Source of the DNA: Escherichia coli
GTDB lineage: Bacteria > Pseudomonadota > Gammaproteobacteria > Enterobacterales > Enterobacteriaceae
Strand: one strand, 5' to 3'
NCBI RefSeq assembly: GCF_003334765.1
Contig: NZ_QOWT01000019.1
DNA length: 64,000 bases
Below, in pieces: positions 55,196 through 55,810 of the stretch. The notes beneath the pieces were generated by a model. The model made no database searches, was not told the origin of the DNA, and saw only the letters and a list, made by a program, of their open reading frames with translations. The stretch's first letter is position 1, and every line of letters starts with the position of its first letter. A program made the translations under genes and the position numbers.

Positions 55196-55810
55196 GATTG
55201 TCTGCTCCCCTGTCTTGTTATGGGAGCAGTATTCAGGAATAAAAACATTCATTAAAAGAATTAGTCGTTATCGCACAGATGATTTTATTCTTAGCAAAAA
55301 AACGGCTAAGGAAAGATTAAATATGCAATTACTCCGTTCTAACAATTGGGAAAATTACTACACTTCATTTTAGTGATGCATAAACAACCACATTACGAGA
55401 TTTATTACTTCATTATTTCTATCAATATCAATACATATAATAAAACTATTATATTCGCATTGTATATATCACTGTATCATTCTCAATCACTCGCATATTA
55501 CATTCACATAATGTATATAAACAATGCTTGTTCACAGAACATATTTTTTAAATGCAATTAATTGACAAACTAAATCACATCTAAATACAATGTATAAAAC
55601 AAAATAACTATACATACCAAACATACAAACACTTAACATATGAATTGCATAGAAACATTACCCAGTCGAACCCACGGGTCTGAAAGCCCTTGCTTTTCAG
55701 TTATTAGCAACATTTAACATTTATAAATTAACATCTGGCTGCGCCAGAGATTACGTCTCTGAGTGCATCGTTGTGCTTGTAGTATAATAAATAAAATGGA
55801 GTGTCATTAA

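Follow-up and report, generated by a model that had tools for sequence, protein, structure and literature searches.

A divergent spacer in Escherichia coli probably joins a tauA control region to the H-NS-bound, AT-rich upstream region of a horizontally acquired yaiS cluster

The divergent spacer between tauA and yaiS in our Escherichia coli window (the whole 64,000-nt stretch of contig NZ_QOWT01000019.1 analyzed here) is probably a composite, in which the tauA control region is joined to the H-NS-bound AT-rich upstream region of a horizontally acquired yaiS cluster. In the mechanism we propose, positions 55196–55332 would be the sulfate-starvation-controlled region of tauABCD, with a weak sigma-70 promoter and boxes for Cbl with CysB, and the remaining ~480 bp would be the AT-rich upstream region of the acquired yaiS-yaiP-yaiX-yaiO genes. 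The low GC content would make this ~480-bp part a binding platform for H-NS, which probably spreads across the core into the GC-poor yaiS and yaiP genes. RNA polymerase could bind many promoter-like sites there, above all TTGACA-18-TACAAT, with productive transcription kept low by xenogeneic silencing. The nature of the spacer as an H-NS-bound, AT-rich promoter island is already known from published work on K-12. Added here are the ~137-bp tauA block, the link between the AT-rich core and the yaiS cluster, the existence of two alleles, the use of the region as an IS1 target, the conserved promoter, and the lack of predicted curvature.

The spacer spans exactly 55196–55810 (615 bp), between the tauA start codon (complement 55193–55195) and the yaiS GTG at 55811. 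tauA (54233–55195, minus strand; RefSeq annotation, identical K-12 record) encodes the taurine ABC transporter substrate-binding protein and is the first gene of tauABCD, while yaiS (55811–56482, plus strand) encodes an intact 223-aa deacetylase of the PIG-L/LmbE type and is the first gene of yaiS-yaiP-yaiX-yaiO. GC content was 30.3% in the spacer (computed on 55197–55810) vs. 51.2% in the whole window, 56% in tauA, and 44% in yaiS, and 48% across the yaiS cluster vs. 56% across tauABCD. Only 0.08% of all 614-bp windows were as GC-poor as the spacer, and the window-wide minimum (29.6%) fell within it. The poorest 200-bp stretch, at 55400–55599, had 22% GC, so that the spacer has the extended AT-rich tract, well under genome GC, by which H-NS regions are recognized. 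The sequence-only reading, which had described a strongly AT-rich divergent region of ~600 bp and quoted two AT runs, was thus exact in its coordinates and composition, and both runs were present in the spacer. Its remark that the region was unusually long holds locally: this was the longest spacer within the 12.8 kb annotated around the locus, and the spacer upstream of tauA in other genera was 172–261 bp.

Published binding data for this spacer come from K-12, to which the strain of the window is near-identical without being K-12 itself: positions 50000–61000 were nearly base-for-base K-12, with two substitutions relative to the MG1655-labelled record and without the IS2 in yaiX. The K-12 spacer, yaiS(-)/tauA(+), is entry 383994_309, one of 78 promoter islands (Panyukov & Ozoline 2013, PMC3661553 Table 1). 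It was H-NS-bound in all of the compiled ChIP-chip studies (Grainger, Kahramanoglou, Oshima), and the adjoining genes were called foreign by three predictors (PMC3661553). Converted to our coordinates, the island (K-12 383994, length 309) lies at about 55349–55657, the GC minimum. Genomic SELEX placed RpoD holoenzyme sites and an H-NS site in the same K-12 spacer, for which the hexamer pairs TTGACA-18-TACAAT toward yaiS and TTGAGA-16-TACAAT toward tauA were given (Shimada et al. 2014, PMC3946193). The two best matches of our mechanical promoter scan, at 55562–55591 (plus strand) and 55486–55459 (minus strand), were exactly these pairs. An RpoS holoenzyme SELEX peak at K-12 383868 (Shimada et al. 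2017, PMC5493296) maps to about 55783 in the window.

To count as a promoter island, a stretch has to span 300 bp or more and be unusually dense in predicted starts. In our proxy scan the island stretch held 36 promoter-like sites per kb vs. 6 per kb for the window (99.3rd percentile), about sixfold the window average. Dinucleotide shuffles of the region predicted 3.7 promoter-like sites and 3 were found, and the high site density that marks an island may simply follow from base composition. AT-richness alone likewise suffices to account for H-NS binding. The high-affinity H-NS motif TCGWTWAATT was not enriched (197 in the window vs. 187 ± 15 in shuffles), and its best match in the spacer, with one mismatch, was at 55556–55565, overlapping the -35 hexamer. 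Where the sequence-only reading saw a promoter silenced by H-NS/StpA, the H-NS part is backed by binding in K-12 in both ChIP-chip and SELEX. Silencing of yaiS itself we infer from that binding and from aggregate statements on promoter islands, which as a set are described as having low transcription output. In the literature searched, we found no study that had directly measured how yaiS or tauA is expressed in hns or stpA mutants. We know of no counter-silencer for yaiS.

The spacer resembles the promoter islands of Shavkunov, Panyukov, and Ozoline in that it is one of their own entries, is H-NS-bound, and adjoins genes flagged as foreign, and the mapped stretch is about 75% AT, in line with the 71% that they give as a mean (PMC3661553). 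Nothing essential differs. Site density is here fully explained by composition, the spacer is not predicted to be curved, unlike their aggregate result, and the promoter conserved across species described below goes beyond what the island concept predicts. With H-NS xenogeneic silencing (Navarre 2006; Oshima 2006, cited within PMC3946193) the spacer shares low GC content, H-NS occupancy, RNA polymerase binding, and a patchily distributed gene cluster alongside; it differs in that one flank is shared with a separately regulated, core-like operon, tauABCD. The region is textbook-style AT-rich foreign DNA under H-NS beside a core-like operon, with little wider import, and current understanding stands. 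The locus may serve as a clean natural example of a silenced island abutting a regulated promoter.

The tauA control region appears to be only the proximal ~137 bp (55196–55332), set apart from the AT-rich core. Two observations point to this: the short tauA spacers outside Escherichia given above, and the near-identity of 55197–55332 in the two E. coli allele types, which differ there by 2.2%. The promoter assigned to this side by the sequence-only reading is consistent with the published activation of tauABCD by Cbl (PMC11794783) and with a conserved footprint, and can be confined to these ~137 bp. We aligned seven tauA upstream sequences, namely the window, an O157 strain, E. fergusonii, Enterobacter, Citrobacter, Klebsiella, and Kluyvera (five genera). 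AATACTGC, at 55233–55226, was invariant (columns 168–175). Read as the candidate -10 hexamer AATACT (55228–55233, minus strand; invariant in all seven sequences, both E. coli types included), it would put the tauA start near 55221 and give a 26-nt 5′ leader (55196–55221, minus strand). The GGAG Shine-Dalgarno of tauA is at 55205–55208 (minus strand).

Upstream of this predicted start lie two conserved boxes, centred at about -37 and -80, that both E. coli tauA upstream types retain. The box TAATTCyTTTA (55253–55263, minus strand; about -42 to -32) is a candidate promoter-proximal LysR-type site or -35 region. The T-rich box CTTTCCTTAGCCGTTTTTTTGCTAAGAAT (55287–55315, minus strand; about -94 to -66; consensus CTwwCCTTtGCCGcTTTTTTTCTAAaAA) is a candidate Cbl/CysB site. 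A two-box layout is typical of LysR-type activators. From conservation, we take the boxes to be putative Cbl/CysB sites and the predicted start point to be as placed above. Compared with LysR-type (Cbl/CysB) promoters like that of ssuEADCB, tauA would share a weak -35 and the two candidate upstream boxes; direct likeness to the ssuE upstream region was limited to a CTTTCyTTAG-like decamer in a by-eye alignment, with the tauA sites placed by conservation only. The other Cbl-activated sulfonate operon, ssuEADCB, also adjoins an H-NS-bound promoter island: the promoter-island catalogue has an entry (996773_328) for the K-12 ssuE/elfA spacer (positions 4970–5324 of locus L087), and cysB/ymiA is likewise island-adjacent (PMC3661553).

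Two further candidate elements near tauA were rejected. The hairpin CTGCTCCC-N12-GGGAGCAG, which would hide the tauA Shine-Dalgarno (z = -3.3), is probably no RNA element: its 5′ arm lies upstream of the predicted start and is lost in other genera. The inverted repeat CTTAGC-N9-GCTAAG does not qualify as a required regulator palindrome, being perfect in only two of six aligned E. coli sequences (the window and PSJ-12), and it was not seen in other genera.

The AT-rich core (55333–55762; segments of 22–41% GC) appears from its distribution to belong to the patchily distributed yaiS-yaiP-yaiX-yaiO cluster and to be absent where tauA has other neighbours. With an 801-nt query, the tauA end was matched in 5420 of 5426 complete E. 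coli genomes and the core (55320–55770) in only 4302. The core and yaiS were missing from 1124 of the 5426, which carry another gene set instead, as would be expected of a horizontally acquired segment. In O157:H7, identity to the window ends at 55233, and tauA faces a gene pair for a response regulator and a MASE1 histidine kinase across a 302-bp spacer with 44% GC (positions 8097–8398 of locus L002). The promoter-proximal part of this O157-type spacer was 85% identical to that of Citrobacter and 80% identical to that of Enterobacter (loci L096 and L098), in which tauA has the same neighbours as in the O157 type. Spacers without the core were 172–302 bp in Enterobacter, Citrobacter, Klebsiella, Kluyvera, and O157-type E. 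coli. In E. fergusonii yaiS does adjoin tauA, and the spacer is 676 bp with GC down to 18%. E. coli has two unrelated arrangements upstream of tauA, the O157 type and the K-12 type, which share no more than the 38 bp directly preceding the ATG.

Among the best 80 loci in species-representative genomes, Citrobacter sp. FP75 had the only close relative of YaiS (81% amino-acid identity). Its yaiS-yaiP-yaiX-yaiO cluster sits at another site with its own non-homologous upstream spacer of 35% GC. We rejected that spacer as a counterpart of ours, since it is AT-rich yet non-homologous and has no consensus promoter. The region had no phage matches, and a mobile-element origin was set aside as well: the five 'plasmid' matches were records of 1.2–4.9 Mb that we took to be mislabelled chromosomes. 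Internal repeats in the spacer consisted only of short AT-rich pairs at chance level.

The core occurs in E. coli as two discrete alleles about 18% apart. At least 95% identity to the window was found in 3260 genomes and about 80–83% in 1035, with only two genomes in between. Divergence between the alleles was uneven. It was 21.8% over 55333–55534, 7.8% over 55535–55650, 20.7% over 55651–55762, and 2.1% over 55763–55810, and the last 48 bp before yaiS were almost invariant within E. coli. An alignment of six E. coli alleles gave the same blocks and contained one recombinant allele. Four-fold sites differed between the allele types by 11–15% in tauBCD and by 0–6% in yaiS, yaiP, and yaiX. Relative to E. 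fergusonii the core had 48–50% identity and was effectively unalignable, with the exception of 55540–55615, where identity was 83%; no other segment of the AT-rich core is retained both across the E. coli alleles and in E. fergusonii. This pattern recalls the 'switched' intergenic regions, or regulatory switching, described for bacterial pangenomes (Piggy, PMC5890482): a single gene pair, tauA-yaiS, has two discrete spacer alleles with <90% identity, and elsewhere tauA is preceded by an altogether different upstream region and has another neighbour. It differs in that the tauA-proximal block is near-identical in both yaiS-linked alleles, and it is mainly the H-NS-bound core that is switched.

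The conserved central block (55535–55650, plus strand) contains the near-consensus sigma-70 promoter TTGACA-18-TACAAT facing yaiS (55562–55591, plus strand), with a predicted start at ~55598, 213 nt before the GTG. E. fergusonii retained both hexamers, their spacing, and the 213-nt distance to yaiS, with 83% identity over the surrounding 76 nt (55540–55615). Closer to yaiS, a TATAAT at 55783–55788 (plus strand) was invariant within E. coli and replaced by CATAAC in E. fergusonii; the GGAG Shine-Dalgarno of yaiS is at 55798–55801 (plus strand). TTGAGA-16-TACAAT facing tauA (55459–55486, minus strand), found by the promoter scan and also given in PMC3946193, was not conserved: its -10 was altered in two of three B2-type sequences and the site was unalignable in E. 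fergusonii. It probably belongs to the non-productive sites of the island. Since the central promoter is kept in E. fergusonii and the other two sites are not, we predict that TTGACA-18-TACAAT is the likeliest yaiS promoter; the sequence-only reading, which expected the spacer to carry whatever drives yaiS, agrees with the presence of this predicted, yaiS-directed site. A more ambitious idea, that 55540–55615 is a boundary that traps RNA polymerase or nucleates H-NS and so insulates tauA, or else the start of a functional transcript gated by H-NS, we regard as a long shot. The palindrome CAGAGA-N5-TCTCTG at 55745–55761 has its centre about 42 bp upstream of the start that the yaiS-proximal TATAAT would give. 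Five of the six E. coli alleles retained it and E. fergusonii did not, and its location would fit binding by a class II activator.

The core could instead be a passive relic, near-neutral leftover foreign DNA whose binding by H-NS is driven by composition and non-regulatory, beside a decaying cluster. Several results lean this way. Most of the core is about 21% diverged between the alleles, above the 11–15% at four-fold sites of tauBCD; at about 50% identity it is effectively unalignable to E. fergusonii, and it is missing altogether in the 1124 genomes noted above. Natural isolates also tolerate insertion of IS1 as well as IS1-associated loss of core and yaiS sequence. In five characterized natural-isolate genomes, IS1 in or beside the spacer had four distinct left junctions. 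One was a target duplication at 55188–55196, abutting the tauA start codon. Another, at about 55404–55419, occurred in two genomes, in one as a simple insertion and in the other together with a deletion reaching 56525. In the remaining two genomes the junction was at 55381, next to a deletion reaching 55955, and at 55165, within the 5′ end of tauA, next to a deletion reaching 56335. Three of the five genomes had lost yaiS partly or wholly. Up to 184 records had the core split in two, an upper bound for insertions. K-12, moreover, has an amber codon in yaiS (T at 56366, TAG, where the window has C, CAG; 185 aa in MG1655 vs. 223 aa here) and an IS2 interrupting yaiX, absent from the window (57800–57899). 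The yaiS cluster thus looks partly decayed in some strains, which makes it less likely that its regulation is still of importance. We nevertheless consider the relic account unlikely. A central block of 76–116 bp with a near-consensus promoter is conserved, with its spacing and distance to yaiS kept, and the 48 bp before yaiS are almost invariant within E. coli. In addition, yaiS, yaiP, and yaiX are intact open reading frames in the window, and the four-gene cluster is kept in Citrobacter sp. FP75. The full-length YaiS of the window matched the Citrobacter homologue over residues 1–223, and RefSeq treats yaiS as a pseudogene of 363 bp, incomplete at its C terminus, in genomes that match the intact 672-bp frame of the window. 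On the minus strand (56348–56467), the 3′ part of intact yaiS encloses the coding sequence of YkiC, a reported small protein of 39 aa.

Conservation of the promoter block could also be read as the mark of an unannotated product driven by the central promoter, whether an sRNA ending at a weak hairpin at ~55680–55700, a yaiS leader or attenuator, or a small protein. A hairpin followed by a T-rich run does occur about 85–110 nt past the predicted start in both E. coli and E. fergusonii, and a 35-aa minus-strand ORF lies inside the conserved block. The B2-type allele lacks the T-rich tail, however, and an Rfam E-value scan of 54000–57000 returned only two chance-level matches, both outside the spacer. 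The putative yaiS leader (55598–55830, 233 nt) folded no better than shuffles (z = -0.5), its six-sequence alignment fold was negligible in energy (-1.4 kcal/mol) and lacked useful covariation, and z was -0.43 for a long tauA leader (55452–55180). The 35-aa ORF has no Shine-Dalgarno, the B2-type allele shortens it to 30 aa, and two of its three substitutions change an amino acid. More generally, the small ORFs of the spacer (20–71 aa) lack a Shine-Dalgarno and are broken or shortened in the second E. coli allele, and nothing is annotated beneath the AT-rich core among the 40 listed E. coli genomes that carry it, in keeping with the sequence-only reading that the spacer has no convincing ORF. 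An sRNA, a small protein, or a structured leader in the spacer is not supported, and a hidden gene seems very improbable. A static bend from phased A-tracts that recruits H-NS in place of AT content we rate just as low. It is suggested by the preference of H-NS for curved DNA (stated in PMC3946193) and by the greater modelled curvature of promoter islands as a set (PMC3661553), and the sequence-only reading had mentioned curved DNA. In a wedge-angle model of end-to-end shortening, the spacer fell only in the 18th–52nd percentile of the window over spans of 42–200 bp, compared with the 99.2nd–100th for the hemB/ehaB spacer, and the positive control behaved as expected (0.548 for phased A6 tracts vs. 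0.004 for unphased). The spacer contained 12 A/T tracts vs. 11.9 ± 2.9 in shuffles, as composition predicts, and no 10–11 bp AA/TT periodicity, with power below the shuffle mean. These results do not support the suggestion of curved DNA, and the composite of a tauA control region and an AT-rich, H-NS-bound yaiS upstream region remains our preferred account.

The window has other AT-rich tracts. The hemB/ehaB-yaiT spacer (50273–50650) is AT-rich, with GC down to 23.5%, and is the one predicted to be strongly curved; over 50300–50499, where it is richest in AT, it had 65–69% identity between the K-12-type and B2-type sequences, with flanking genes at 95–100%. A third AT-rich patch, at 40255–40450, had GC down to 24% over 200 bp.
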